From the NCBI GenBank assembly GCA_028704525.1, contig JAQWFF010000002.1, forward strand, positions 1 to 34,474: DNA of 34,474 bases. Reading direction: 5' to 3'. Within the stretch, counting starts at the first letter, position 1. Every line of letters begins with the position of its first letter. Below, one piece after another: positions 22,742 through 34,474 of this stretch. Under the pieces are notes generated by a model. That model had not been told where the DNA came from and ran no database searches. It was given only the letters and a program-made list of their open reading frames with translations. The stretch is from Candidatus Dojkabacteria bacterium (GTDB lineage: Bacteria > Patescibacteriota > Dojkabacteria > SC72). A program made the translations under genes and the position numbers.

Positions 22742-22827
22742 GCCGAGGTGGTGGAATTGGCAGACACGCTACCTTGAGGTGGTAGTGGGAGTAAAATCCC
22801 TTGCAGGTTCAACTCCTGTCCCCGGCA
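22742..22827 (+). tRNA. tRNA-Leu (anticodon GAG), type II with a long variable arm, no encoded CCA
   Basis: GCCGAGG TG GTG GAATTGGCAGA CAC G CTACC TTGAGGT GGTAG, variable arm TGGGAGTAAAATCCCT, then TGCAGG TTCAACT CCTGT CCCCGGC A. There is one A:C mismatch at acceptor pair 5:68. Confidence 0.85.
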
Positions 22828-22830
22828 TAT

Positions 22831-22907
22831 GGACGACTAGCTCAGCTGGTTAGAGCATCTCGTTTACACCGAGAAGGTCATAGGTTCGATCCCTATGTCG
22901 TCCACCA
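22831..22907 (+). tRNA. tRNA-Val (anticodon TAC), CCA encoded
   Basis: GGACGAC TA GCTC AGCTGGTTA GAGC A TCTCG TTTACAC CGAGA AGGTC ATAGG TTCGATC CCTAT GTCGTCC A CCA. All stems pair. Confidence 0.95.
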
Positions 22908-24674
22908 TCCATGTTTTTCAGCCTGTAACTTCAGTTCAGGTTCTAGTGAGAAAAGCATTTCACCGAGCATCTTTGAGGGGATTTTCAATGATATTTTTAG
23001 TTTGTAAGGAATCATCTGTCCTTCTTTCTTTGGGCCCGAAACACTATCTGTTTTTCTTTTTGGTCTAGAGAAAATAATAATTTCGTCAACAATCATGTGT
23101 ATTAGAGAGTAGAGTTCTTGATCTGAGCCCTTTTCCTCAAGCATCTTAAGTGCATCCCCATATTTATCTTTAAAAATATTGAATACTTTTATATATTCGT
23201 GTGTATTCGTGAATATTGATAACTCACTTTCTAAGTCTTCTTTCTCTTTAATATATCGTTTATATTTCTTATCAAGGTCTTTGATTCTCTCAATCTTCTC
23301 TTCTTTTTTAATGTCTCCGTTTTGATACATTTCAATCACTCTAGACCTTGCAGAGGCATGTGTATTTAGAAGATCCAATAAGTTATCCAATTGTCCTTTC
23401 TTTCTTTTAATATCATTCTTGCTAGATTCTAGCTTCTGTTGATGATGGAATACTGGAGTTGGGTCTTTTATTAGATCGTATACTAGTTGTAGTACATGTT
23501 GTTCTAAAGGAATTGCAGGTAGGCTAATTGTATGACAAACAGTATCTCTTGTTTTGCTCTTGGATGTATTTTTACAACTACATTCATAATAATAAGCCAT
23601 TTCCCCTGTGCTTCTAACTTTGTGAGGCAGTCCATTCCAACTGTATGGTTCAGTGTGTTTTGTCGGATCAAAACAGTTTGCACATTTGAGTAACCCTTGT
23701 AAAAGATACAACCTTTGTTGCTTAGAATAGTTCCCTCTTCGTAGATGATTACTTCTTGACCTATATTCTTGAGCCTTTTGGAAAAGTTCTTTGTCTATTA
23801 TCGCTTGTTTGTGGCGATATATATCCCACTTATCTTGAGGAAGTTTATTACCATCTTTGCTTTTGTTGTAATATTGATTCCCAATATAAACTTCATCTTT
23901 TAGTATTCTACCTACAACTTCGGGATACCAGTGATACCTACCATGTCTACTACCCTTTCTCTTTTTGTTTGGATCTTCCTTGTGATGAATGAATCTGTAT
24001 TCAATAGGGCTAGGGACTTTGTGGTCTCGTAAATATTCTGCTATTTCTCCTTGACTGAATCTGTCATGAACAAACATATTGAAGATGGATCTTACAACTT
24101 CAGTTTCTTCTTTTTGGATAAGTAGCTTTTTGTTTTCATCTTTAACATAACCTAGTGGGGCAGTATTCATGAAGGCTCCTTTTTCTGCAGCTTGTTGTCT
24201 CCCAGCATGGGTCCTTTCTTTAATCGTTTCTAGTTCCAATTCTGCAATTACACCGATGATTCCCAGCATCGCTCTTCCGAAGGGAGTAGAGGTATCTATA
24301 CTTTCTTGGGATGAAAGAAATTCTATCTTCGGTTCTTGTTTCTCAAATATGTCTATTATTTCTAGCAGGATTTTTAACCGTCTTGCAAACCTATCTATTT
24401 TGTAAACAGCAACTATATCAAAAGGAGGTGTGTCTGATAGGGTTATATCTTCCATTAGCTTTCTAAAAGCGACTCTTTCCATGGGTTCTTTTGTTCCGCT
24501 CTCACCCTCATCAATGTAGATATATTCTTCTCCTGCAAGTTCGTATTCGCCACCTTTGGATTTAATAAGTCCTAGTAATGCTTCTCTCTGAAGATCTACC
24601 CCAAACATATCTATCTGTTCTTCGGTAGAAACCCTGATATATAGCGCTACTTTTTTCTTTTGTTTTTCTTCCAT
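22893..24674 (-). CDS. Large serine recombinase (integrase)
   Basis: N-terminal resolvase domain (VALYIRVSTEEQ, YKIDRFARR), Cys-rich zinc-ribbon region (LKCANCFD...YYECSCKN) and a C-terminal coiled coil. The last four codons plus the stop are the reverse complement of the tRNA-Val 3' end (22893-22907). Confidence 0.85.
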   Translation of the reverse strand: MEEKQKKKVALYIRVSTEEQIDMFGVDLQREALLGLIKSKGGEYELAGEEYIYIDEGESGTKEPMERVAFRKLMEDITLSDTPPFDIVAVYKIDRFARRLKILLEIIDIFEKQEPKIEFLSSQESIDTSTPFGRAMLGIIGVIAELELETIKERTHAGRQQAAEKGAFMNTAPLGYVKDENKKLLIQKEETEVVRSIFNMFVHDRFSQGEIAEYLRDHKVPSPIEYRFIHHKEDPNKKRKGSRHGRYHWYPEVVGRILKDEVYIGNQYYNKSKDGNKLPQDKWDIYRHKQAIIDKELFQKAQEYRSRSNHLRRGNYSKQQRLYLLQGLLKCANCFDPTKHTEPYSWNGLPHKVRSTGEMAYYYECSCKNTSKSKTRDTVCHTISLPAIPLEQHVLQLVYDLIKDPTPVFHHQQKLESSKNDIKRKKGQLDNLLDLLNTHASARSRVIEMYQNGDIKKEEKIERIKDLDKKYKRYIKEKEDLESELSIFTNTHEYIKVFNIFKDKYGDALKMLEEKGSDQELYSLIHMIVDEIIIFSRPKRKTDSVSGPKKEGQMIPYKLKISLKIPSKMLGEMLFSLEPELKLQAEKHGWWTT

Positions 24675-24704
24675 CTAAATAAGAAGGTATAGCTTGGAAC
24701 TTAA

Positions 24705-25103
24705 TTATGTAGATCTAACTCTCTTGTAGAGTTTGTGTAATAGGGATTTATTATCCTGGTCAATGTCTGTGACTACGACATCTAATATTCTTGATATGTT
24801 CTTTTCCTTAATCTCCCATTTTTTAGGAAGTACAAGTTGTATAAATCTAGGGGGATTTCCTGCATATAAATATCCATGATCTAGGGTAGCACCAAACATT
24901 TCTTCTTTGACCTTGTAATCATTGGGCTTTTGTAAGTAGCTATATAGCATGCTTTCTATGTTATCTCTCAATATGACAAAATAGGTGTTATCTTCAATTA
25001 CAATGGGAACGGCCGAGTGGTAATTATATTTAGTAAACTCCTGAGCAGTAGGCATAGTCTTTTGTACAAGGAAATACTTTCTAAGCTCTTCTAGAGTTGT
25101 CAT
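24705..25103 (-). CDS. Hypothetical protein adjacent to the integrase
   Basis: 132-aa ORF with no motif. Its position would suit an accessory or directionality factor, but that is speculation. Confidence 0.45.
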   Translation of the reverse strand: MTTLEELRKYFLVQKTMPTAQEFTKYNYHSAVPIVIEDNTYFVILRDNIESMLYSYLQKPNDYKVKEEMFGATLDHGYLYAGNPPRFIQLVLPKKWEIKEKNISRILDVVVTDIDQDNKSLLHKLYKRVRST

Positions 25104-25212
25104 ATTCTGATTATATCAAAGATGGGAGGCATCTTTTAAAATTTCTACCTAGAGCATATAATAAGCTATGTTACCTAAACCTAATATTTAGGCATGGTGA
25201 TGAAAAATAAAT

Positions 25213-25336
25213 CCAGATCAGTGTGTTAGGCGGTCTTCCGTCTCTCAATCACTGATCTGGTTACTAGGGGAAACCTTAGTAGAGGATACAGCAATGTACC
25301 TCTGTGAGCGGGAGACCACTTGTCTCAAAAACTCAC
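25213..25336 (+). ncRNA. Candidate structured RNA (four contiguous hairpins, two with GNRA loops)
   Basis: P1: 25213-25223 pairs with 25250-25260 (11 bp), with an inner 6-bp stem 25228-25233/25238-25243. P2: 25263-25280, 7 bp with a GAAA loop. P3: 25281-25303, 5+4 bp with a GCAA loop. P4: 25304-25336, 5-bp outer and 5-bp inner stems. The segment looks richer in G+C than the flanking intergenic DNA. TATAAT lies at 25157-25162 upstream. Confidence 0.5.
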
Positions 25337-25366
25337 AAGAATCAAATAACTTGATCAGAAGTTAGG

Positions 25367-26131
25367 ATGGAAAAGAATTCTTTTATCCCTTTTACAATTA
25401 TATCGTCAAAACTTTTTAGAATGGAACATGAATTGTTTCCATCTAACACCTCGTTCATTAAGAAAATTCTCCTGGCAATAGGGATCCCTCGTATTGATGT
25501 CCCTTCTTATTCAGCAAAGATTAAGGACTTGTATGCAAAGTTTGAAGTAATCCGGGACAAAACAACTGAAGCGGAGAGGGAAGCGATGAGTGAATTTACA
25601 GAGAAGGATGAGTTTATAAACAAGATGGATGAATGTATTATTGCTTTTTCTAAGGTTGTTGAAAGTTTAGAGAGGAAATTAAAAAATAACAAATCTTTAA
25701 AATTTGGAGAATTTGAGGAGTTAATAAATAACTATAAAGAGAAGAAGTTGGACCTGCTACAAGTTACCGAGAAGATCGTTACAGCAACAAGAAAAACTGA
25801 GGAAGAAACATGGAGTAATTTACATAAAAGTCTTGAAAAATGGGAGAATGAAGGAGATGACAAAAAAGGCCTTGATACAAGAGAAAAGAACCATGTTATT
25901 TCAAAGCAAACCGAAGATGGGCTATGGAAAGTCTTAATTAAGAATGATAGCGAAGAACTGGTATTTAAAAAGGCTAAAAAACTAGTAATAGAAAGAGGAT
26001 CAGCCACACCGAGTTTTATAAGTAGAACATTGCAGATAGGTCAGAATCAGGCTGCTAGAATATTCATGCGATTGCAAGATGAGAGGATTATAAGTAAAGA
26101 TTATCCTTATGAAGTATTAAAAAGTAACTAA
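25367..26131 (+). CDS. Coiled-coil protein with a C-terminal FtsK-gamma-like winged-helix DNA-binding domain
   Basis: The C-terminus KKLVIERGSATPSFISRTLQIGQNQAARIFMRLQDERIISK matches the FtsK gamma pattern (..aS.S.lQR.l.IGynRAar....Le..Giv). Confidence 0.5.
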   Translation: MEKNSFIPFTIISSKLFRMEHELFPSNTSFIKKILLAIGIPRIDVPSYSAKIKDLYAKFEVIRDKTTEAEREAMSEFTEKDEFINKMDECIIAFSKVVESLERKLKNNKSLKFGEFEELINNYKEKKLDLLQVTEKIVTATRKTEEETWSNLHKSLEKWENEGDDKKGLDTREKNHVISKQTEDGLWKVLIKNDSEELVFKKAKKLVIERGSATPSFISRTLQIGQNQAARIFMRLQDERIISKDYPYEVLKSN

Positions 26132-26268
26132 TTCTCTTTGCAACTGGGGGAGATGCTTACTATTCAGTTACCCATCATACATTTATTGGAGATTAAGGCA
26201 GTAGGGTTTGTCTAGGACTGTTTAAAGGTGTATTTACGAAGGCACTTATAGTGTGTATATAATATGAT

Positions 26269-26721
26269 ATGACAAAGAATAGGAGATTAACAAAGAAGCA
26301 AGAAATGTTTTGTAAGTTGTATGCTACAGATAGAGATTATTTCGGGAATGGTACACAAGCATATGCAGAAGCATATAACATTGATCTAACACAAAGTGGA
26401 AAGAAAAGTTCTGTAAGAACAAATGCATCTAGATTGCTAACATATGATCACATAATTAGGCGAATTGATAAGTTACTGGAACTGGGAGGACTGAGTGACA
26501 ACTCCGTTGACAAGGAGCTTTTGTTTTTAATAAAACAGAATGCTAATTTCAATGTTAAGCTAGGAGCAATTAGGGAATATAACTCTTTAAGAAAGCGGAT
26601 CATACACAAGGAAGAGGTTCATGTTAAATCGGATGTTAATCTAACAAGTTTCTTAAAAGAATTGAAGGATAAGTCATCGGAACAATTGATTGCTATCAAT
26701 CAGAGGATGTATGGTAAGTAA
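26269..26721 (+). CDS. Phage-type small terminase subunit (Terminase_2-like)
   Basis: LTKKQEMFCKLYA....GNGTQAYAEAYNID....NASRLL. TATAAT lies 5 nt upstream of the ATG. No large terminase follows. Confidence 0.55.
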   Translation: MTKNRRLTKKQEMFCKLYATDRDYFGNGTQAYAEAYNIDLTQSGKKSSVRTNASRLLTYDHIIRRIDKLLELGGLSDNSVDKELLFLIKQNANFNVKLGAIREYNSLRKRIIHKEEVHVKSDVNLTSFLKELKDKSSEQLIAINQRMYGK

Positions 26722-26768
26722 GGGATTTTCTTGAAGTGACCAATTTAAACTTATATAATAAGCTCAAT

Positions 26769-28490
26769 ATGAAAGAAGTATTTTGTCCTCATTGTACAAA
26801 AGAGTTAGTTTTAGATAGTAACGACTTGGCTCTTGAAGTGATAAGATGTCCATCCTGTGGCTGGTTCTTTCTTTTATCAGAAGCAGAGAATGGAGATTCG
26901 GGAGATGATTTGTTATTGATAAACATTGAAACTAAATACAACCAAGATGGATCAGTTAAGGCAAGGGCTGGATATAAAGCAAATATCGGTAGTAGACCTC
27001 TTGACCGAGTCGTAAATATATCTGCAGACAGCAAATACGAATTATCAGAAAAGATAAGAGAAACAGCATATGATCTCAAGGAACAGGCAAAAGCTGAGAA
27101 GTCGTCATTGGGTATTGAAGAACAGATGACAATGTTACAAGGTATTTTGGAACATGGCATTAAAACAAAGATAGATTTTAAGTGGGAAGATGAAAAGAGA
27201 AGGGATAAGTTTGAGAAGAAGAAACCTAGTTTTGACAAAACAAAGCCTAAAAAGGAAGATGTTTATCGTTCCTTATGGATATTTGAGAATATATTCAAAA
27301 AATATGCTGCTAAGAAAAACAAGGAGTACGAACAGAGGTTGAAAGAGCTAACAAAAGATTGGGAGAAGGAGAAAAAGGAATTTGAGAAAAGTTTGGCAGA
27401 ATGGGAAAAGGAGAAAGAGAGTTTTGAAAAAGAGAAAGAGGAATTTAACAAGAAAATTGACGAGAAGATAGAAAAACAGAAAAAAGGGAAGAAGGAGATT
27501 GTAGAGGAGTATTTTGAGAAGATTCTTGCATTATCAGAATATCCTACTAACTTCCCTCATAAATTTGATCTTGGATATAAAGCAGAGGAAAAGATGCTCG
27601 TTATTGAATATGTTCTTCCTGAGTACGAAGTTATTCCCAAATATCAAAGAGAAGAATATAAGAGAACAACAGGAGAAAGGAAGAAAGTACCTCTTTCAGA
27701 ATCTGCAAGAGAAAAGTTATATAACGAAGTTCTTTATTCTCTACCATTAAGAACACTACACGAGATATTTGAAAATGATAAATATGAGAATATAGATAGT
27801 GTTGTGTTTAATGGTTGGGTAGACACTCTTGATAAAGCAAAGGGAAAGAAAAAGCATATATGTATATTAACAGTTCATGCAAAGAAGGAAGACTTTGCAG
27901 AGATTGATTTAAGAAAAGTAGAACCAAGAGCTTGCTTCAACGGACTGAAAGGTGTTGGTAGTAGCAAATTAAGTAGTCTTGCTCCTGTTGCTCCAATTTT
28001 AAAACTTAATAAAGAGGATAAGAGGTTTATTAGTGCTGAAGAGGTCTTAAATGATGTTGATAGCTCTGTTAATATTGCCTCTATGGATTGGGAAGACTTT
28101 GAACATCTTGTAAGAGAAGTTTTTGAACAGGAGTTTGCAAAATCAGGGATGGAGGTTAAGGTAACTCAGTCAAGTAGAGATTTGGGTGTTGATGCTGTAG
28201 CTTTTGATCCAGATCCTTTTAGAGGAGGGAAAATTATTATTCAAGCTAAGCGATATACAAATACTGTGAAGGTAGAGTCTGTCAGAGCCTTGTATGGCAT
28301 TATGCAGGATGAAGGTGCTATGAAGGGTATTATTGTTACTACATCTGATTATGGTCCCGATGCTTATAAATTTGCACAGGGTAAGCCAATTACTTTGATA
28401 AATGGGAATAACCTGTTGTCAATGTTAGAGAAGTATGGGCATAAAGCAAGGATAGATATAAAAGAAGCTAAGAAACTTTTACAGGAGTAA
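26769..28490 (+). CDS. Zinc-ribbon / coiled-coil / Mrr-type restriction endonuclease-domain fusion protein
   Basis: N-terminal CPHC...CPSC, a central KE-rich coiled coil, and a C-terminal Mrr_cat-like core (DWEDFEHLVREVF...GVDAVAF...IIIQAKRY...GIIVTTSDYG). Start set at ATG 26769, 9 nt after TATAAT, not the track GTG at 26736. Confidence 0.65.
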   Translation: MKEVFCPHCTKELVLDSNDLALEVIRCPSCGWFFLLSEAENGDSGDDLLLINIETKYNQDGSVKARAGYKANIGSRPLDRVVNISADSKYELSEKIRETAYDLKEQAKAEKSSLGIEEQMTMLQGILEHGIKTKIDFKWEDEKRRDKFEKKKPSFDKTKPKKEDVYRSLWIFENIFKKYAAKKNKEYEQRLKELTKDWEKEKKEFEKSLAEWEKEKESFEKEKEEFNKKIDEKIEKQKKGKKEIVEEYFEKILALSEYPTNFPHKFDLGYKAEEKMLVIEYVLPEYEVIPKYQREEYKRTTGERKKVPLSESAREKLYNEVLYSLPLRTLHEIFENDKYENIDSVVFNGWVDTLDKAKGKKKHICILTVHAKKEDFAEIDLRKVEPRACFNGLKGVGSSKLSSLAPVAPILKLNKEDKRFISAEEVLNDVDSSVNIASMDWEDFEHLVREVFEQEFAKSGMEVKVTQSSRDLGVDAVAFDPDPFRGGKIIIQAKRYTNTVKVESVRALYGIMQDEGAMKGIIVTTSDYGPDAYKFAQGKPITLINGNNLLSMLEKYGHKARIDIKEAKKLLQE

Positions 28491-28503
28491 CGGCTATCGG
28501 TTC

Positions 28504-28944
28504 TTAAAAGTGTACAATATCCTGTGCTTTAATTAGGGAGTTTTCTTTATCTTGGATCATCTCTCTACAAGACATTAAAATTTCTTTAACCTCTTTAGCA
28601 TTTGGTTTATTGCTCAGTCTTTCCATTACTTCTTTTAGTAACTTCTCATCAGGAATCCAGAGAGTTAGCTCAAAACTTAGTTGATTCAAAGATTTATACC
28701 TTATATATTTATCATTTTTGTCTTCACCTTCCTTCTTTGTTATCCATGTAGCAAATAATTCAGCAATCTTAGAAGATTGCTCTTTCCTAAGATATAGGTT
28801 TTTGTAATCTTCTAAATTCTTGTCGTACTGGTTTCTGACTGAGCTTTCTAATTCTGCCTTTATCCAGAGGATAAATAGAAACTGCAACAGAGAAATAACT
28901 AGCAATATTATATCCATAAAAAATAAATAATAAGTTAATTTCAA
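28504..28944 (-). CDS. Membrane-anchored hypothetical protein
   Basis: N-terminal TM (YYLFFMDIILLVISLLQFLFILWI) followed by a helical soluble part. Confidence 0.45.
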   Translation of the reverse strand: MKLTYYLFFMDIILLVISLLQFLFILWIKAELESSVRNQYDKNLEDYKNLYLRKEQSSKIAELFATWITKKEGEDKNDKYIRYKSLNQLSFELTLWIPDEKLLKEVMERLSNKPNAKEVKEILMSCREMIQDKENSLIKAQDIVHF

Positions 28945-29001
28945 TATTATATAATAATTGTAAAACTAAATTGTCATGAGAGAATTGTTGGTAAAACCTA
29001 A

Positions 29002-29030
29002 TTGACAGAATATTTTTGCTGATATATAAT
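29002..29030 (+). promoter_or_regulatory. Canonical sigma70-type promoter
   Basis: TTGACA (29002-29007), exact 17-nt spacer, TATAAT (29025-29030). Confidence 0.7.
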
Positions 29031-29074
29031 CCAGTATTAAATCCTCCTTATGGCCTCGGCGATATGGAGTCAAC

Positions 29075-29098
29075 GGGGGCTTCGGCCCCTTGTTTTTT
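29075..29098 (+). terminator. Intrinsic terminator hairpin with a UUCG loop and a U-tract, inside the leader of the NYN gene
   Basis: GGGGC (29076-29080), UUCG, GCCCC (29085-29089), then TTGTTTTTT. It lies about 40 nt downstream of the predicted TSS and 16 nt upstream of ATG 29115. Confidence 0.65.
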
Positions 29099-29114
29099 AT
29101 TTCACTAAAAAGAG

Positions 29115-29648
29115 ATGAATAGAGTTAAAGTATTCATAGATAACAGTAATGTTTACAAATGTCTTTTAGAACAGAGCATTGTAGATCCTAAGTGGAAAAA
29201 ACAATATGATCCGTTATTTTTATCTCAAATACTTGTAGGGGATAGGGACTTGGTAGGGGTAAATTTCTACTGTACAAATCCGCCCCCTTCTCTGAGAAAG
29301 GCTAATCCAAAGGCATTTGCTTCTCAGGAAAGTTACTATAGCAGAGTAGAAAATTTAGAAAAGGTAATTATACATTTTGGCAATCTTACAACTAATGACG
29401 GTAAGTATTTTGAAAAGAATCTTGATACACAGATGGTCGTAGATATTATGGAAGGAGCTTATCAAGATCATTTTGATACACTAATTCTAGTCTCTAGTGA
29501 TGGAGACTTTGAGAGTACGATAAGAAAAGTGAAAGAGATAGGTAAGAGAGTTGAGATTCTTTTCTTTAGGGGGCATGTTTCGCAAAATTTGAAAAAAGTC
29601 AGCGATGTTAATAGGAGAGCAAGAAGGTCGTATTTCAAGCAATTATAA
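29115..29648 (+). CDS. NYN (LabA-like) domain protein, putative RNase
   Basis: VFIDNSNVY, LDTQMVVDIM and LILVSSDGDFESTIRKVKEIGKRVEIL fit the NYN/PIN-like acidic motifs. Confidence 0.65.
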   Translation: MNRVKVFIDNSNVYKCLLEQSIVDPKWKKQYDPLFLSQILVGDRDLVGVNFYCTNPPPSLRKANPKAFASQESYYSRVENLEKVIIHFGNLTTNDGKYFEKNLDTQMVVDIMEGAYQDHFDTLILVSSDGDFESTIRKVKEIGKRVEILFFRGHVSQNLKKVSDVNRRARRSYFKQL

Positions 29649-29673
29649 AAGTCTTGTTCTGAGAGAAATTGAA

Positions 29674-29709
29674 GTTTTAAGTTCCAAGCTATCCAACACA
29701 TTCCACCAT
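29674..29709 (+). repeat. Family-2 tRNA-Val-3'-end-like repeat, copy R0
   Basis: GTTTTAAGTTCCAAGCTATCCAACACATTCCACCAT. Same orientation as tRNA-Val. It aligns with R1 (TTTTAAGTTCCATGCATTTCAATATCGTCCACCAT). Confidence 0.65.
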
Positions 29710-29735
29710 TAGAATAGTTATTGAACAGTTGATTT

Positions 29736-30266
29736 ATGTTTTGGGATGAACTTATCATTGGAATAGCAGTCACGATTATTGGAGGAGTAGTAACTCCTTT
29801 AATTCTTTGGGGTATTAAAAAATTAAAAAGATCTAAAAAGGTGAAAGAAAATTTAATTTTAAATCACGAAATTAGTTCAAAAAAATTACCTAAAAACATT
29901 GAGAAAAAAAGTTCTAAAGATGATTCAATGGAATTGTTGGAAAAGTTTAAGGTAAACCCAAGGGCAATTATTGATTCTGTGTATGCAGTTGCGCCGTTCT
30001 TGAGAACTGAAAAAGAGGCATCTTTCAAAGGGGTAAATGTTAAGTGGAAATTATCGTTCGTATCTGTTCTTAGAAATTCTTCTGATAAAGTTAGGTTAGC
30101 ATTTGTTTGGGATGATTCATATCCTTGGGTATATTTTGACTCTTATATTACTGAATATCCTGAATTGAAAATCATTAACGAGGGAACTCAAGTTTTAGTT
30201 AAGGGGGAAATTAACAAGGTTGATGGACATAATATTGAATTAGAGAATGTTCGGCTCAAATTTTGA
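29736..30266 (+). CDS. Membrane-anchored hypothetical protein
   Basis: N-terminal TM (LIIGIAVTIIGGVVTPLILWGI), a basic linker and a soluble C-terminal domain. Confidence 0.45.
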   Translation: MFWDELIIGIAVTIIGGVVTPLILWGIKKLKRSKKVKENLILNHEISSKKLPKNIEKKSSKDDSMELLEKFKVNPRAIIDSVYAVAPFLRTEKEASFKGVNVKWKLSFVSVLRNSSDKVRLAFVWDDSYPWVYFDSYITEYPELKIINEGTQVLVKGEINKVDGHNIELENVRLKF

Positions 30267-30323
30267 TAGTTTGAGAATATATCAAACTATCCAAGTCTTG
30301 ATGAAATTCCCATATAATAAATA

Positions 30324-31370
30324 ATGACTAAACAAGAAAAACTTTCTATTGTTTTTGATGAGATATTTCATTTAAATGTTTGTGGGGAAGATAAAGAAAA
30401 AGTTAGGCGAGATATTTCCAAAACAAATATAGATTCCGAAATTATGATTATTGCAGAAGCTATGGCTCCTGAACAAGTGAGACTCTCGGGAGTAAATTAT
30501 TTTTACAAAGATGGAAGAATAGGAAATACAGGAAAATCTTTAGAAAAGTTTTTAAATAAATTTAACTATACTGTTTGTACAGATAAACCGAATTGTATAT
30601 ATCACACAGAAATAGTACATAACTTCCCTGGATATGAAATAAAAAATGGAAAGAAAAGTATTAAAAGACCAAGTAAAGAAGAAATACGAGTATCAATTAA
30701 AAGTAATATCTTAAAAAAAGAGATAGCTATTATTAAACCTAAGTTAATACTTTTAATGGGAGATACAGCATATAAATCATTTTATAAGTACTTTCTGGAT
30801 ATACAATCTTACAATAATCTTACAAAAGAAATAGATTATATTTCTAAGACTAAGAAGTTTAAGAGACATCAAAATATCCCTGTAATACCAATACAGCATA
30901 GTTCTGGTGCTAATCCAAGATTTCAAGAAATGTTTAAAAACACAGAATTGATAGATTTCATAAACGAAATTCTTAATAACCCAATGGATCTTAAACTTTT
31001 GAAAGTAGCTATAAAGAATTCTTGGTGTAAAGATACTGTTTGTCCATCTGTTACGGAAATGTGGAATAGGTCAAATAAAACAATTGGTCAATGTGCTGTA
31101 ACTGCACTGCTAGTATATAAATATCTAGGAGGAAAGATATACAAAGGAGATATTTTAGAAAAAGGATATTCTCATTATTGGAATGTTCTTCCAAATGGTA
31201 AAAAAGTTGATTTAACGAAATCACAATTTGGTTATGAAATGGTCATTCTTAATAATATTAAAGAAAAGAAACCCGAAGAAATGCTAAAAGATGAAGAGCT
31301 ATTAAATAGATATAAAATCCTTGAAAGGCAGGTTGGTTTCCAATTGAAAAATTTAAAGAAAGTAATATAA
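30324..31370 (+). CDS. Uracil-DNA-glycosylase-superfamily domain fused to a C-terminal YunG-like domain
   Basis: Motif-A-like IMIIAEAMAPEQ and motif-B-like IQHSSGANPRF. The C-terminal part has IGQCAVTALLVYKYLGG...HYWNVLPNGKKVDLTKSQFG. TATAAT lies 5 nt upstream of the ATG. Confidence 0.45.
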   Translation: MTKQEKLSIVFDEIFHLNVCGEDKEKVRRDISKTNIDSEIMIIAEAMAPEQVRLSGVNYFYKDGRIGNTGKSLEKFLNKFNYTVCTDKPNCIYHTEIVHNFPGYEIKNGKKSIKRPSKEEIRVSIKSNILKKEIAIIKPKLILLMGDTAYKSFYKYFLDIQSYNNLTKEIDYISKTKKFKRHQNIPVIPIQHSSGANPRFQEMFKNTELIDFINEILNNPMDLKLLKVAIKNSWCKDTVCPSVTEMWNRSNKTIGQCAVTALLVYKYLGGKIYKGDILEKGYSHYWNVLPNGKKVDLTKSQFGYEMVILNNIKEKKPEEMLKDEELLNRYKILERQVGFQLKNLKKVI

Positions 31371-31380
31371 AGAAATATTG

Positions 31381-31415
31381 TTTTTAAGTTCCATGCATTT
31401 CAATATCGTCCACCA
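31381..31415 (+). repeat. Family-2 repeat, copy R1
   Basis: TTTTTAAGTTCCATGCATTTCAATATCGTCCACCA. TCGTCCACCAT is identical to tRNA-Val 22897-22907 plus one base. It abuts the stop codon of the 31416-32054 gene. Confidence 0.75.
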
Positions 31416-32054
31416 TTACGTATTCAAGATCTTCCTTATTCTATCTACTGCTAAAGACATATTTCTTCTACCTTGTCCTACAGGATAATATGTAGGATAT
31501 ATCTCATACCCATTTAATATTTCTTTCTGGTCATCAACATAGTCACTAACAGAAATACTTCTATCCAAAAGAATAGATGATACCTGATTACCAAATGTAA
31601 CTATCTTTTTAGGATTAACAATGTCAATTTCTTTATACATTAAATCTAAATATTCTTTGAAAACAGAATTGTTAAGAGGTCTTGCATCAATTTGAGTACA
31701 TTTTGCAAGATTAGTTATAAATACAGAATGATTTTCTATATCTGTATATACATCGTTAGCAAATTCATAGTCCCATTCCTCAGATTTTAAAGTCTTTATT
31801 TTTAAATATATATCTGATTGTAATAATCCAATATCCCTATAAATATCCCATACTTGTTTTGTACCAATCCAAGGAGCTCTTAATCCTCTCCAAGAACAGG
31901 TACTAGAAATATTCCTACCTGTAGGATTCATAAAGATAAACATTATTTCAGGATCATTTATACAACCAGCTCCGTATATTGAAGAAAGAGTAGGGTCTCC
32001 ATATTTTAATTGTAGTTTATCGTACTCCTTATGTAATTGAATAACTTGTTGCAT
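31416..32054 (-). CDS. Divergent uracil-DNA-glycosylase-superfamily protein
   Basis: IMFIFMNPTGRN at the motif-A position, KIVTFGNQV, and YPTYYPVGQG at the motif-B position. 212 aa. TATAAT lies 9 nt upstream of the ATG. Confidence 0.4.
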   Translation of the reverse strand: MQQVIQLHKEYDKLQLKYGDPTLSSIYGAGCINDPEIMFIFMNPTGRNISSTCSWRGLRAPWIGTKQVWDIYRDIGLLQSDIYLKIKTLKSEEWDYEFANDVYTDIENHSVFITNLAKCTQIDARPLNNSVFKEYLDLMYKEIDIVNPKKIVTFGNQVSSILLDRSISVSDYVDDQKEILNGYEIYPTYYPVGQGRRNMSLAVDRIRKILNT

Positions 32055-32120
32055 AGATTAGAAATTATACTCTAAACAGATTCTGCTTTTAAGTTCGATG
32101 CACTTTAATATCGTCCACCA
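32055..32120 (+). repeat. Family-2 repeat, copy R2 (best-preserved pseudo tRNA-Val 3' end plus promoter)
   Basis: Minus-strand read: TGGTGGACGATATTAAAGTGCATCGAACTTAAAAGCAGAATCTGTTTAGAGTATAATTTCTAATCT-ATG. The tRNA-Val reverse complement reads TGGTGGACGACATAGGGATCGAACCTATG. Confidence 0.8.
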
Positions 32121-32921
32121 TTAGATTCCTCCAAACAACTTTTGCATATCCTCATCATTCAAATTCCTTATATTGTTAATAATAGACTTCTCCCCCTCTT
32201 TCAAAATTACTACATCTCCATTGAAATCTATATATTTAAAATTACTTTTATTATGAGAAACTTTGGGAGTAATCTCAATGTTTCTAAAGTTTTTAATCTT
32301 TTTTATTGAATCAGTGAAGGTCTTTTTTGAAATACCTAATAGATTCTTAATACCTTTTGATTTTTCACTTAATGATACGAACTGATGTAACTCCCATCTT
32401 TGTATATTAGGATATTGGGTAATTTCTTCATAGATATTATTCAAATCATCAATATTATTCTTATGAACTACAGTATTAATAGTTATTTTAAAATCATTAT
32501 TATTAAGAATCTTCAGGATAGTTTTAGTTTGTTTTAAAATATCTTCCCAGTTAGTTCTAAATTCTTCTGCAACTTTCTGAGAACTTCCATCAAAAGGAAT
32601 TCCAATTAAGGAAATCTTTTTAGCCATTTGAGCTTTGATAAATTTGTCGCTAAATTCTTTCCTCAAGAGTGGAATTCCTGTTGTATCCAGATGAATATTG
32701 AAATCAAGAGAGAAGAATATATTTATAATATCAAGAATATCTTCTCTAATTAGAGGGTCTCCACCACTTAGAGTTATCCCCAAGTATCCTGTGTTTTTAA
32801 GAGTAGAAGCTAATTTGGAAATTTCCTCTAGAGTTAGTTCTTTCCCCTCTCTTTTATCTAGATAACAGCCGTTACAGTTACCAAAGCAGTTCCCTGAAAC
32901 TAGAAAACAGATTTTCTTCAT
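32121..32921 (-). CDS. Radical SAM protein (single-gene module)
   Basis: NCFGNCNGCY (CX3CX2C) and LSGGDPLI. 266 aa. Confidence 0.75.
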   Translation of the reverse strand: MKKICFLVSGNCFGNCNGCYLDKREGKELTLEEISKLASTLKNTGYLGITLSGGDPLIREDILDIINIFFSLDFNIHLDTTGIPLLRKEFSDKFIKAQMAKKISLIGIPFDGSSQKVAEEFRTNWEDILKQTKTILKILNNNDFKITINTVVHKNNIDDLNNIYEEITQYPNIQRWELHQFVSLSEKSKGIKNLLGISKKTFTDSIKKIKNFRNIEITPKVSHNKSNFKYIDFNGDVVILKEGEKSIINNIRNLNDEDMQKLFGGI

Positions 32922-32987
32922 AGCTAAAGATTATATATTAAAACAATCTTACTTTTAAGTTATATGTATCTCAATCCTTTCCACCAT
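32922..32987 (+). repeat. Family-2 repeat, copy R3
   Basis: Minus-strand read: ATGGTGGAAAGGATTGAGATACATATAACTTAAAAGTAAGATTGTTTTAATATATAATCTTTAGCT-ATG. The promoter half is near-identical to R4. Confidence 0.75.
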
Positions 32988-32992
32988 TAGTA

Positions 32993-33547
32993 TTATAGAA
33001 GTTTCATTGCTGCGTCATATTTATCTTGTATTAACTCTTTCCCAATTGATGTCAACTTGTTATAACTCCTCTTTAATTTCTCTTTAACAAAGGTATTTGC
33101 ATCTTCTGTTTCCAGACCTCTTACAATAATAGCAAGGTAAAAAAGAGAAGAGATAGTATTAAAATGAGACATAGCATCAGCATCTGCTACACACTCAGCT
33201 TCAATACTTTCTCTAGGAATATCTTTACTACCCCTATGCGCATAAATACAATGTTTAACTTTCGCTATCCTCTCTTTAGGGTAGTTATGTTTCTTTAAAA
33301 ACTCTTCTGCATATTTCTGGCCAATAACATGATGTCTTTCATAAGCTCCTTTAATACTAGCAATATCATGTAACCAAGCTGATACAAGAACTATTTCCCT
33401 ATCAGCATTTCTCATAGTAGCTAATTGTCCTGCAAACATAACAACGGATTTAAAATGATGATTATAAGCATTCATACCAAAAGGATTAGTTTTCTTTTTA
33501 CACTCTCTTAGAACATATTCTTGTGCTTGTTTTACAATATCATTCAT
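32993..33547 (-). CDS. HD-domain metal-dependent phosphohydrolase
   Basis: NHHFKSV...AWLHDIA...HRG...DADAM, a H...HD...D pattern. 184 aa. Confidence 0.75.
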   Translation of the reverse strand: MNDIVKQAQEYVLRECKKKTNPFGMNAYNHHFKSVVMFAGQLATMRNADREIVLVSAWLHDIASIKGAYERHHVIGQKYAEEFLKKHNYPKERIAKVKHCIYAHRGSKDIPRESIEAECVADADAMSHFNTISSLFYLAIIVRGLETEDANTFVKEKLKRSYNKLTSIGKELIQDKYDAAMKLL

Positions 33548-33612
33548 ATCTAAAGATTATATATTAAAACAATCTTACTTTTAAGTTCTGTGCACTTTAG
33601 TATCGTCCACCA
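33548..33612 (+). repeat. Family-2 repeat, copy R4 (overlaps the 3' end of the next ORF)
   Basis: Minus-strand read: TGGTGGACGATACTAAAGTGCACAGAACTTAAAAGTAAGATTGTTTTAATATATAATCTTTAGAT-ATG. Confidence 0.8.
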
Positions 33613-34381
33613 ATATATTTAATCTCCTGAATTCTATTCGGTTGTTTGTATACAGTATATTCCAATCGGTTCCAATATCTACCTTAAATTCAAACCTTGG
33701 TATATTCTCCTCTACTCTCATATTATCTATCCTTACTCCATTTGGAATTATACTAAATACCGATTGAGTTATTTTTAATTGATCACCATCTTTCAATACC
33801 ATAGCCATATGGGTATATGAACCTTCTTTGTTTTTCAAAAGTAATAGATCTAGATTAGAAAGAGAGTCTAAATCGGTAATAATAGTACTTGCAGTTCCAG
33901 AGAAAATTTCCACAGATGCTCTAGAAGCTCCTGTTCTATCTTCTTCTTGCCATGCCAAAGATTTTATAAATTGGTCTTCCATATTGATAGATTTAAAACC
34001 TTCAAGTAGGACATTGTATATATACCCAGAGCAATCTATACCGAGACCAAAGAGCTTCATAGATTCTCGTATACCATCGGGAGAAGCATTCTGTATATTA
34101 AAATCTCTAACTTTAGATATTTCTAAAAACGCAGACTTTAATTCTTCTGGTGTTCCTTTCCCTCTATACCAACCATACTTGCTTTTGTTCCCTTTATATA
34201 ATTTATGTACTTCTTTAATTCTTTCTTCATCTATACCAGATTGTTTCATTAGAGAAAGAAACTCTTGTTCTACAAAGTTTATTGCATATGGACATGATAT
34301 CTTTTGGTTTGATATATCTAAATTAAGATATCTATCAATATTCTCTCTAACATATTTATTTAGTTTTTCTTTTTGAATCAT
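33581..34381 (-). CDS. NlpC/P60-like (papain-fold) cysteine peptidase-like protein, no signal peptide
   Basis: LGIDCSGYIYNVL (the Cys nucleophile context) and LDLLLLKNKEGSYTHMAMVL (the His context). The last 10 codons are encoded by repeat R4. Confidence 0.5.
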   Translation of the reverse strand: MIQKEKLNKYVRENIDRYLNLDISNQKISCPYAINFVEQEFLSLMKQSGIDEERIKEVHKLYKGNKSKYGWYRGKGTPEELKSAFLEISKVRDFNIQNASPDGIRESMKLFGLGIDCSGYIYNVLLEGFKSINMEDQFIKSLAWQEEDRTGASRASVEIFSGTASTIITDLDSLSNLDLLLLKNKEGSYTHMAMVLKDGDQLKITQSVFSIIPNGVRIDNMRVEENIPRFEFKVDIGTDWNILYTNNRIEFRRLNILVDDTKVHRT

Positions 34382-34474
34382 AGTTTAAAGTATATCATCT
34401 CAAGTTTCCTGTTTATAGATTGAATTAAGTATTAGATTTAATCTTTATATTTAAATCTTCTCCCTTGAGAAAGA

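Follow-up and report, generated by a model that had tools for sequence, protein, structure and literature searches.

The 34,474-nucleotide stretch analyzed here (the window; contig JAQWFF010000002.1 of a Candidatus Dojkabacteria bacterium, GenBank assembly GCA_028704525.1) carries, directly after a tRNA-Val(tac) gene, the gene for a large serine recombinase (LSR), and farther on five short direct repeats (R0 to R4) that divide the DNA into compact units. This raises the question as to whether the units are cassettes that come and go at the 3' end of the tRNA gene and, if so, which enzyme moves them. A preliminary description of the locus had likened it to an integron cassette array, with a ladder of attachment-site (att) scars as a more ordinary alternative. 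Comparison with related loci bears out a cassette array anchored on tRNA-Val, with units that have their own promoters. On balance, we favor the view that this is a site-specific array most likely served by an LSR family of the candidate phyla radiation (CPR), organized like the staphylococcal cassette chromosome (SCC) and on the scale of an integron.

A repeat family downstream of tRNA genes

All five repeats lie on the plus strand, in the orientation of the tRNA, as described previously (profile extents 29664-29711, 31371-31418, 32076-32123, 32942-32989, and 33568-33615), and the last A of the CCACCA that closes each one is the exact unit boundary (29708, 31415, 32120, 32986, and 33612). Searching the 34-kb window with nhmmer revealed no further copies (the next-best match has E>1), with only a weak echo at the tRNA end. 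The reported resemblances to the tRNA are present: R2 aligns with it over GTTCGAT and TCGTCCACCAT with four extra nucleotides in between, and TCGTCCACCA occurs exactly four times in the window, at the tRNA end and in R1, R2, and R4. However, when similarity to tRNA-Val is compared with 2000 dinucleotide shuffles, it exceeds expectation for R1 and R2 (0/2000 each) and R4 (p=0.002), but not for R0 (p=0.12) or R3 (p=0.11).

To place these repeats in context, we defined the family as TTTTTAAGTTCCATGC-N13-CCACCA, 34-38 nt long. A first scan of one genome per species with a degenerate pattern found three contigs from CPR metagenome-assembled genomes (MAGs; two Saccharibacteria and one Dojkabacteria) with two to six copies per array. 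The generalized pattern TTAAGTTCCAWGC-N13-CCACCA gave 106 metagenome stretches from digesters, sludge, and sediments, and an iterated profile gave 254 copies at 105 loci from metagenomes and MAGs of the CPR (Saccharibacteria, Dojkabacteria). Within each of the 105 loci all copies face the same way; they number at most eight per array, and are typically ∼430 to 1500 bp apart (10th to 90th percentile of unit length). The consensus is TATTTTTAAGTTCCATGCCTGAAAGTATAGCCCACCATT, and conservation ends 2 to 3 nt past CCACCA. The repeats differ from one another by 20-40%, contain neither an internal inverted repeat nor a GTTRRRY box, and form no attC-like hairpin, with the consensus and the window repeats folding at 0 to -1.9 kcal/mol (z -0.4 to +0.8). 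The strict repeat pattern has no match in viral contigs.

The repeats had been regarded as decayed tRNA-Val 3' ends, but they are better described as a conserved attP-type arm, whose resemblance to the tRNA is limited to the last 6 to 13 nt and to a GTTC motif displaced by 4 nt. GTTC precedes the end by 28 nt in all repeat copies (about 250 members) and by 24 nt in the tRNA, and the constancy of this offset indicates a design feature, not decay. The 28-nt spacing, together with the TTAAGTTCCATGC arm kept across lineages, rules out decayed tRNA copies, and Rfam finds no tRNA match on the repeats. We also considered a retroelement-type primer-binding site and T-box-like pairing of a minus-strand transcript with tRNA, and dropped both, as repeat orientation follows the tRNA and not the genes, and units recombine at the site.

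Scanning related metagenome bins with a profile, as the preliminary description had suggested, also shows where the arrays reside. An upstream tRNA is in view at 44 loci, and at 39 of these it is tRNA-Val (gac or tac), oriented like the repeats; the other five anchors are tRNA-Lys (two), tRNA-Ile, tRNA-Ala, and one Val-like gene, and all end in CCACCA. The anchor usually lies 190 to 1600 nt before the first repeat, and another 23 loci, with 700 nt or more of flank upstream, have at most 3.1 kb of it. Two chromosomal contexts recur, sortase-tig-clpP-tRNA-Val(gac) and enolase-tRNA-Leu(gag)-tRNA-Val(tac), such that the genes upstream of the anchor are housekeeping genes; the window has the second of these, and is syntenic with a Dojkabacteria MAG at 52-60% amino acid identity over three housekeeping genes. 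The CCA end is encoded in 21 of the 22 distinct anchor tRNA sequences, compared with 3 of the 19 other tRNAs in the same loci, and the CCA either arrives with the incoming site or is needed by the recombinase.

One class of repeats ends in ATATCG[C/T]CCACCA (R1, 31402-31415; R2, 32107-32120; R4, 33599-33612; and also loci L088, L049, and L063), and this class copies the local tRNA acceptor strand, with TCGTCC in the window and TCGCCC elsewhere.

Units are shuffled at the CCACCA boundary

When the arrays are cut at CCACCA boundaries, 191 units result, which group into 93 DNA families. The median unit length is 705 bp, and the small units range from 231 to 2885 bp. A single gene is present in 70 of the 89 small families (46 forward and 24 reverse), two to four genes in 17, and none in two. 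The one-gene modules of the preliminary description thus hold for most units, which have a single gene with its own promoter, but not for the unit between R0 and R1, which has two plus-strand genes. The cargo is of an accessory nature, and includes Erm/KsgA-like dimethylases, NUDIX proteins, S41-like proteases, radical SAM proteins, UDG-like and MPG glycosylases, HD-domain proteins, ASCH and GNAT proteins, SAM methyltransferases, an amidohydrolase, APH, Ham1, and NIF3.

The arrays are differing permutations of shared unit families. For example, related arrays read tRNA-F4-F1-F5-F0-F8-F3 (L050) and tRNA-F4-F1-F0-F8-F3 (L008), and others tRNA-F25-F14-F4-F1 (L088) and tRNA-F30-F56-F57-F25-F4-F1 (L044). 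Two or more different upstream neighbors are seen for 21 of 76 families, and 11 families are found both directly after the tRNA and internally. The window's own UDG-like unit (31416-32120) belongs to a family, F2, present at nine loci with six different upstream neighbors, one of which is tRNA-Val. Within a family, homology starts no more than 3 nt from CCACCA and includes the unit's own right-hand repeat, indicating that the repeat travels at the 3' end of its unit and that exchange occurs at or in CCACCA. Exchange of units exactly at the TGGTGG/CCACCA core is thus seen across related arrays.

Promoters accompany the junctions. On the minus strand, TTAAAA-N17-TATAAT is found where it had been reported, at 32092-32064, 32958-32930, and 33584-33556, and the open reading frames (ORFs) at 31416-32054 and 32121-32921, both on the minus strand, do end in TTA directly after CCACCA. 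Promoter-like matches inside the window alone are not above shuffle expectation (26 versus 30 expected). Across 87 unit families, TGnTAnAAT in the first 20 nt of units occurs 21 times versus 0.28 expected, and a minus-strand -10 element 40 to 70 nt before the right boundary occurs 39 times versus 7.5 expected, and the junction promoters are thus statistically real. The repeat could in principle be nothing other than a transcription or RNA-processing signal (a promoter, a terminator, or a tRNA-like processing site) with no role in recombination; its TTTTAA overlaps the -35-like hexamer of the minus-strand promoters, and it resembles a tRNA 3' end. We regard this as highly improbable: repeat orientation tracks the tRNA and not the flanking genes, which face either way in single-gene families, there is neither a stable hairpin (z ∼0) nor an Rfam tRNA match, and the shuffling of units exactly at the repeat end already contradicts a signal-only explanation.

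Two unit types deserve mention. F4 is a 231- to 236-nt unit without an ORF that recurs as an independent cassette (L050 4266-4500, L008, L037, L044, and L088); it contains GGTGCAAGTCCGACGACCTAC and may encode a small RNA, and the 236-nt version has no match in Rfam. With 13 members, UDG-like units rank among the most frequent cassette families, and the window has two distinct UDG-superfamily genes in adjacent units, one at 30324-31370 on the plus strand, fused to a YunG domain, and one at 31416-32054 on the minus strand.

A family of large serine recombinases is linked to the repeats

The LSR ORF ends inside tRNA-Val, as had been noted, its last codons TGG TGG ACG ACA TAG being the reverse complement of 22893-22907 (ARAGORN; Pfam). 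The protein matches PF00239 (2.9e-32) and PF07508 (6.4e-18), with a match to PF13408 (Zn_ribbon_recom; 7.5e-4) below the gathering cutoff, and has 334 homologs at E<=1e-30, whose source names include Dojkabacteria, Parcubacteria, and Levybacteria. It is the only recombinase family seen within the array loci. Seven independent LSR units have the tRNA CCACCA on the LSR side and exactly one family repeat on the far side (Table 1), and the LSR ORF extends into the tRNA in all cases examined. Because every LSR unit runs from the tRNA to one repeat, we conclude that the repeat is the P arm of the LSR attP site, and that the T-arm and acceptor end of the tRNA are the B arm. The preliminary association of the array with a nearby serine recombinase is thus supported in that the enzyme is linked to the sites, from tRNA to one family repeat at seven independent loci, but most arrays have no recombinase in cis.

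In the window, an older array lies beyond the LSR element, which has inserted next to the tRNA as the proximal unit. In the close LSR clade, the other arm of the site (TCCATCTTTTTCTGCCTGTAACTT), located in the 3' end of the LSR gene itself, contains the repeat motif in inverted and imperfect form, with agreement at 10 of 12 outer positions. In the attP reconstructed from six LSR units, P is AAGTTCCATGC, and AAGTTACAGGC is the reverse complement of P'; the site spans ∼56 bp, with the dyad center in CCCA/CCA (the slash marking the center), shared with the tRNA, and among 764,000 background positions no non-repeat match is better than the inverted P' motif. GTTC sits 4 nt nearer the center in the tRNA than in the repeat, in the left arm only, and this resembles, by analogy, the shift of the zinc-ribbon motif between attB and attP; in A118-type integrases that motif is shifted inward by 5 bp in attB relative to attP (PMC3783163).

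These findings bear on the att-scar ladder, in which serial integrations at tRNA-Val would each have been deleted down to a last gene plus attR. At tRNA sites, successive integrations are known to displace older elements outward, as for tycheposons (bioRxiv 10.1101/2020.12.28.424599), and both the tRNA-proximal position of the window's LSR element and a broken LSR copy at tRNA-Ala (L103) are compatible with such a history. However, among 191 units the P' arm motif GCCTGTAACTT and LSR fragments are found only directly after the tRNA, and no internal junction has either. Moreover, units of 0.4 to 1 kb recur intact, with identical ends, in varied orders and positions, and compact single-gene design with junction-adjacent promoters is the rule. 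The preliminary description had named the ladder as a more ordinary alternative, and we consider it very unlikely.

The LSR elements have further features in common. An ORF of ∼130 aa (132 aa in the window) lies directly upstream of every LSR of the family, with 28-48% identity among its copies; it has no Pfam or NCBIfam match, and is a candidate directionality factor or regulator. A related LSR clade (41% identity), which ends inside tRNA-Pro(tgg) (L130 10001-11815 and L131 3173-4987), has a 78-aa partner with the same C-terminal motif, and an ORF ending in a tRNA is therefore a habit of the family; no repeat array matching the tRNA-Pro clade is present in the 10 kb examined. LOOT RNA is found in four of the seven LSR elements scanned (window 25172-25300, L090 9383-9515, L123 8042-8174, and L082 10457-10585), at 54.6 to 73.9 bits, above gathering, and always divergent from the LSR operon, and the integrative elements may include this orphan RNA motif among their components. 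Because the LSR reading frame crosses the attachment site, the C-terminus of the enzyme depends on integration state: it is ...EKHGWWTT* when integrated and would be ...EKHGWWNVLDSLELKTSISLRTRLL* in the predicted excised circle (window 22893-22910 and 29640-29708). A scan of viral contigs with the single LSR protein found no relatives, and with an LSR alignment only LSRs of ∼25% identity, with no tRNA or repeat nearby.

A model for unit movement, and points against it

Each unit begins just past CCACCA and ends in a 34- to 38-nt P-arm site, and we propose that the LSR joins the tRNA, ending in CCCA/CCA (B arm GGTTCGA...CCACCA), to a P arm with the same CCCA/CCA end. The crossover is probably within the shared CCACCA, around CCCA/CCA, and strand exchange there would regenerate the tRNA including its encoded CCA, such that the tRNA would keep its sequence and gain or keep an encoded CCA on insertion. 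As only the left arms are conserved, the tRNA would stay a target after every insertion, and the array could grow and reshuffle; insertion would presumably occur preferentially next to the tRNA. Any P-arm site could then act as a partner, enabling capture or excision of recombinase-less units in trans. The autonomous units (6.8-13 kb) would supply the LSR together with the partner ORF and, in over half of those scanned, LOOT RNA, and the small units, which lack a recombinase, would be moved in trans by the LSR in the manner of ccr-less SCC cassettes.

A broader formulation is that of a 'serine-recombinase integron', in which one LSR family with one-sided sites would repeatedly use a tRNA platform to capture, stockpile, and reshuffle promoter-bearing single-gene cassettes across the CPR/Patescibacteria. 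It would then be a second gene-capture platform, of independent evolutionary origin, and a main route by which accessory genes move in these reduced genomes. We put this forward tentatively, as a reading with slightly less than an even chance of being correct.

Several observations weigh against the LSR as the mover of the small units. First, an LSR in cis is missing from about 32 of the 39 arrays in which the tRNA can be seen. Second, canonical LSRs need two half-sites per att site and are strict on site pairing, and the small units have no inverted copy of the repeat motif downstream of CCACCA that could serve as a second half-site; the inverted P' motif is likewise absent in the 42%-identity LSR of L128. 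Third, canonical LSRs do not recombine attL- or attR-type sites without a directionality factor. Fourth, neither circular junctions, which the preliminary description had envisaged, nor empty-site junctions were found among the contigs; tandem same-family units were not found either, and none of the 113 loci checked is a circular contig. Fifth, the N13 class varies within one unit family, which a single fixed CCACCA crossover does not explain; such class switching suggests gene conversion or a second exchange point.

One alternative is that the small units are moved by a recombinase encoded elsewhere in the genome, such as a tyrosine or Xer-like enzyme, and that the LSR elements target the same tRNA end with an adopted compatible site. 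The scarcity of LSRs in cis and the one-sided sites, unusual for LSRs, are both consistent with this, and on short contigs an unlinked gene would be out of sight. Nonetheless, each LSR unit terminates distally in a bona fide family repeat, even where the LSRs are only 42% identical, from which it follows that the LSR must recognize the repeat sequence; the flanks of the anchor tRNAs are housekeeping genes; and a tyrosine recombinase recurs nowhere in the 833 kb of array loci. In those loci an XerD probe gave no tblastn match at E<=1, and no tyrosine-recombinase family is among the top Pfam families matched by at least two of 118 cluster representatives; the sensitivity of these searches is limited, a divergent or unlinked recombinase could have escaped them, and this also counts against the LSR model. 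We consider a recombinase encoded elsewhere unlikely.

A second explanation is that the repeats provide portable homology, with RecA-dependent recombination or replication slippage occurring between 38-nt repeats after DNA uptake. Near-identity over 34 to 38 nt is close to the minimum for homologous recombination, internal loss of a unit fits (F5 is present in L050 but not in L008), and the mixed N13 classes and the hybrid repeats that exist, such as CTGAAAGTATCGCCCACCA, resemble gene conversion. However, the 20-40% divergence among repeats makes them a poor substrate for homologous exchange, and homology leaves unexplained the origin of the repeat, the anchoring at tRNA CCACCA, the identity with the LSR attP arm, and the encoded-CCA bias. 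We therefore think it quite unlikely that homology drives the array, and retain LSR-mediated exchange as the preferred explanation.

Relationship to known systems

The preliminary description knew of no system with this combination of features, and our full-text literature searches found no prior description of such an array; nonetheless, SCC and SCCmec elements are a precedent, as tandem LSR-moved cassettes that include recombinase-less ones. The Ccr LSR of one SCC cassette excises tandem ccr-less cassettes in all combinations (PMC11470126). SCC elements integrate by LSR at the 3' end of a conserved gene, rlmH of staphylococci, which is regenerated, as tRNA-Val is intact here; and cassettes lie in tandem between direct copies of a short site, many without a recombinase, and with accessory, defense, or resistance cargo. 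They differ in using rlmH, a CcrA/CcrB pair, and cassettes of 10 to 60 kb, whereas here there is a tRNA anchor, a single LSR gene, and mostly one-gene units with promoters at the junctions, in CPR/Patescibacteria.

Integrons likewise have co-oriented sites, mostly single-gene cassettes in varied positions and arrays, and a platform site fixed at one end; the absence of a recombinase in cis from many arrays recalls clusters of attC sites lacking integron-integrases (CALINs), and the cargo spectrum is similar (GNAT, APH, methyltransferases, and NUDIX). However, IntI is a tyrosine recombinase, and here the LSR is the only recombinase seen, with no IntI-type enzyme by the anchor; attC is a folded palindrome (R''-L''...L'-R'), and here the site is a conserved non-palindromic duplex without a hairpin; integron cassettes are promoterless and read from Pc, and here the units have their own promoters and genes on both strands; and the platform site here is the end of a tRNA gene. 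The array thus fails the integron-defining features (IntI, folded attC, and promoterless cassettes), and matches the integron layout together with LSR/SCC logic.

Tycheposons of Prochlorococcus and Islander-type islands also integrate at tRNA 3' ends, with newcomers pushing older elements outward, and a minority use LSRs. Tycheposons are multi-kb elements with their own integrase and replication genes and true partial-tRNA flanks, in contrast to the sub-kb recombinase-less units here, whose repeat shares so little of the tRNA. The phage serine-integrase sites (A118/LI, Bxb1, and phiC31) are similar in the domain architecture of the enzyme, in an attP of ∼50-56 bp with imperfect dyad symmetry, in a probable outer motif (GTTC here) that is nearer the center in attB, and in attP and attB being identical at the crossover. 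In the system described here, by contrast, one half-site is conserved in attB and in the small-unit attP, the offset is 4 nt and not 5, the integrase ORF crosses the attachment site, and an occupied site is apparently re-used.

How CPR/Patescibacteria acquire accessory genes is poorly understood, as their genomes are tiny and few mobile elements have been recognized in them. The arrays constitute a widespread, precisely delimited tRNA-Val hotspot through which lineages resembling Saccharibacteria and Dojkabacteria exchange sub-kb, self-expressed modules. Should these modules be moved by the linked LSR, integron-like gene capture would have arisen convergently on serine-recombinase chemistry. 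It would also mean that an LSR can act on one specific half-site and use the same target repeatedly, and a short, defined, and regenerating landing pad would be of interest for genome engineering; the proposal is testable with a defined enzyme and 40- to 60-bp substrates.

Features of the window

The features of the window and the LSR units at other loci are listed in Table 1.

Table 1. Features of the array locus, with lengths of the LSR units elsewhere (window coordinates; unit boundaries at the last A of CCACCA)
Feature	Position	Strand	Length	Remarks
tRNA-Leu(gag)	22742-22827	+		ARAGORN, Rfam; neighbor of the anchor; CCA not encoded; no site use
tRNA-Val(tac), array anchor	22831-22907	+		ARAGORN, Rfam; intact, CCA encoded
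tRNA-Val T-arm and acceptor 3' strand				GGTTCGATCCCTATGTCGTCCACCA; B arm of attB, now attL (assigned role)
P' arm of LSR element	22908-22933	+		TCCATGTTTTTCAGCCTGTAACTTCA; doubles as LSR 3' coding end
GCCTGTAACTT	22921-22931			Within P' arm; imperfect inverted copy of repeat motif AAGTTCCATGC
LSR	22893-24674	-	593 aa	Resolvase, Recombinase, and Zn ribbon; ORF crosses attL, stop inside tRNA-Val
Partner ORF	24705-25103	-	132 aa	Directly upstream of LSR; no known domain
LOOT RNA (Rfam RF03000)	25172-25300	+		Non-coding RNA in LSR element
Unit 0, LSR-bearing element	22908-29708		6801 bp	Bounded by tRNA CCACCA and R0 CCACCA; cargo beside LSR: FtsK-gamma-domain protein, TerS-like protein, Mrr-like endonuclease, NYN protein
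R0 repeat	29675-29708	+		P arm, class C: TTTTAAGTTCCAAGCTATCCAACACATTCCACCA; attR of LSR element
Unit 1	29709-31415		1707 bp	Two + genes: 176-aa unknown protein, 348-aa UDG + YunG protein; ends in R1 (31382-31415)
Unit 2	31416-32120		705 bp	UDG-like gene 31416-32054 (-); family F2; ends in R2 (32087-32120)
Unit 3	32121-32986		866 bp	Radical SAM gene 32121-32921 (-); promoter 32958-32930 (-); ends in R3 (32953-32986)
Unit 4	32987-33612		626 bp	HD-domain gene 32993-33547 (-); promoter 33584-33556 (-); ends in R4 (33579-33612)
Unit 5	33613-34474			Cut by window end; 266-aa ORF 33581-34381 (-), no family match; last 10 codons in R4
LSR unit, L090			12,993 bp	
LSR unit, L082/L113			12,507 bp	
LSR unit, L123/124			10,511 bp	Chromosomal genes resume after single repeat (L123)
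LSR unit, L125			9269 bp	
LSR unit, L126			8128 bp	
LSR unit, L128			∼11.5 kb	LSR 42% identical

The window has a GC content of 33%. The NlpC/P60-like label given previously to the 266-aa ORF (33581-34381) has no support in Pfam or NCBIfam, and exact-protein look-ups of this ORF, the HD protein, and enolase returned no record. The sole public contig with the exact LSR (L001, Logan) is identical to window positions 22860-32953, and breaks inside the tRNA and inside R3, at places where a short-read assembly graph would be interrupted by repeated or variable sequence. Sequencing run SRR22315502 also contains precisely this locus. We also note that the cargo of the LSR element looks defense-like, with an Mrr-type endonuclease with an N-terminal zinc ribbon (26736-28490, plus strand) and an NYN nuclease-fold protein (29115-29648, plus strand), and that its 12.5-kb relatives carry an Eco57I/MmeI-type restriction-modification fusion (L113 1115-3832).

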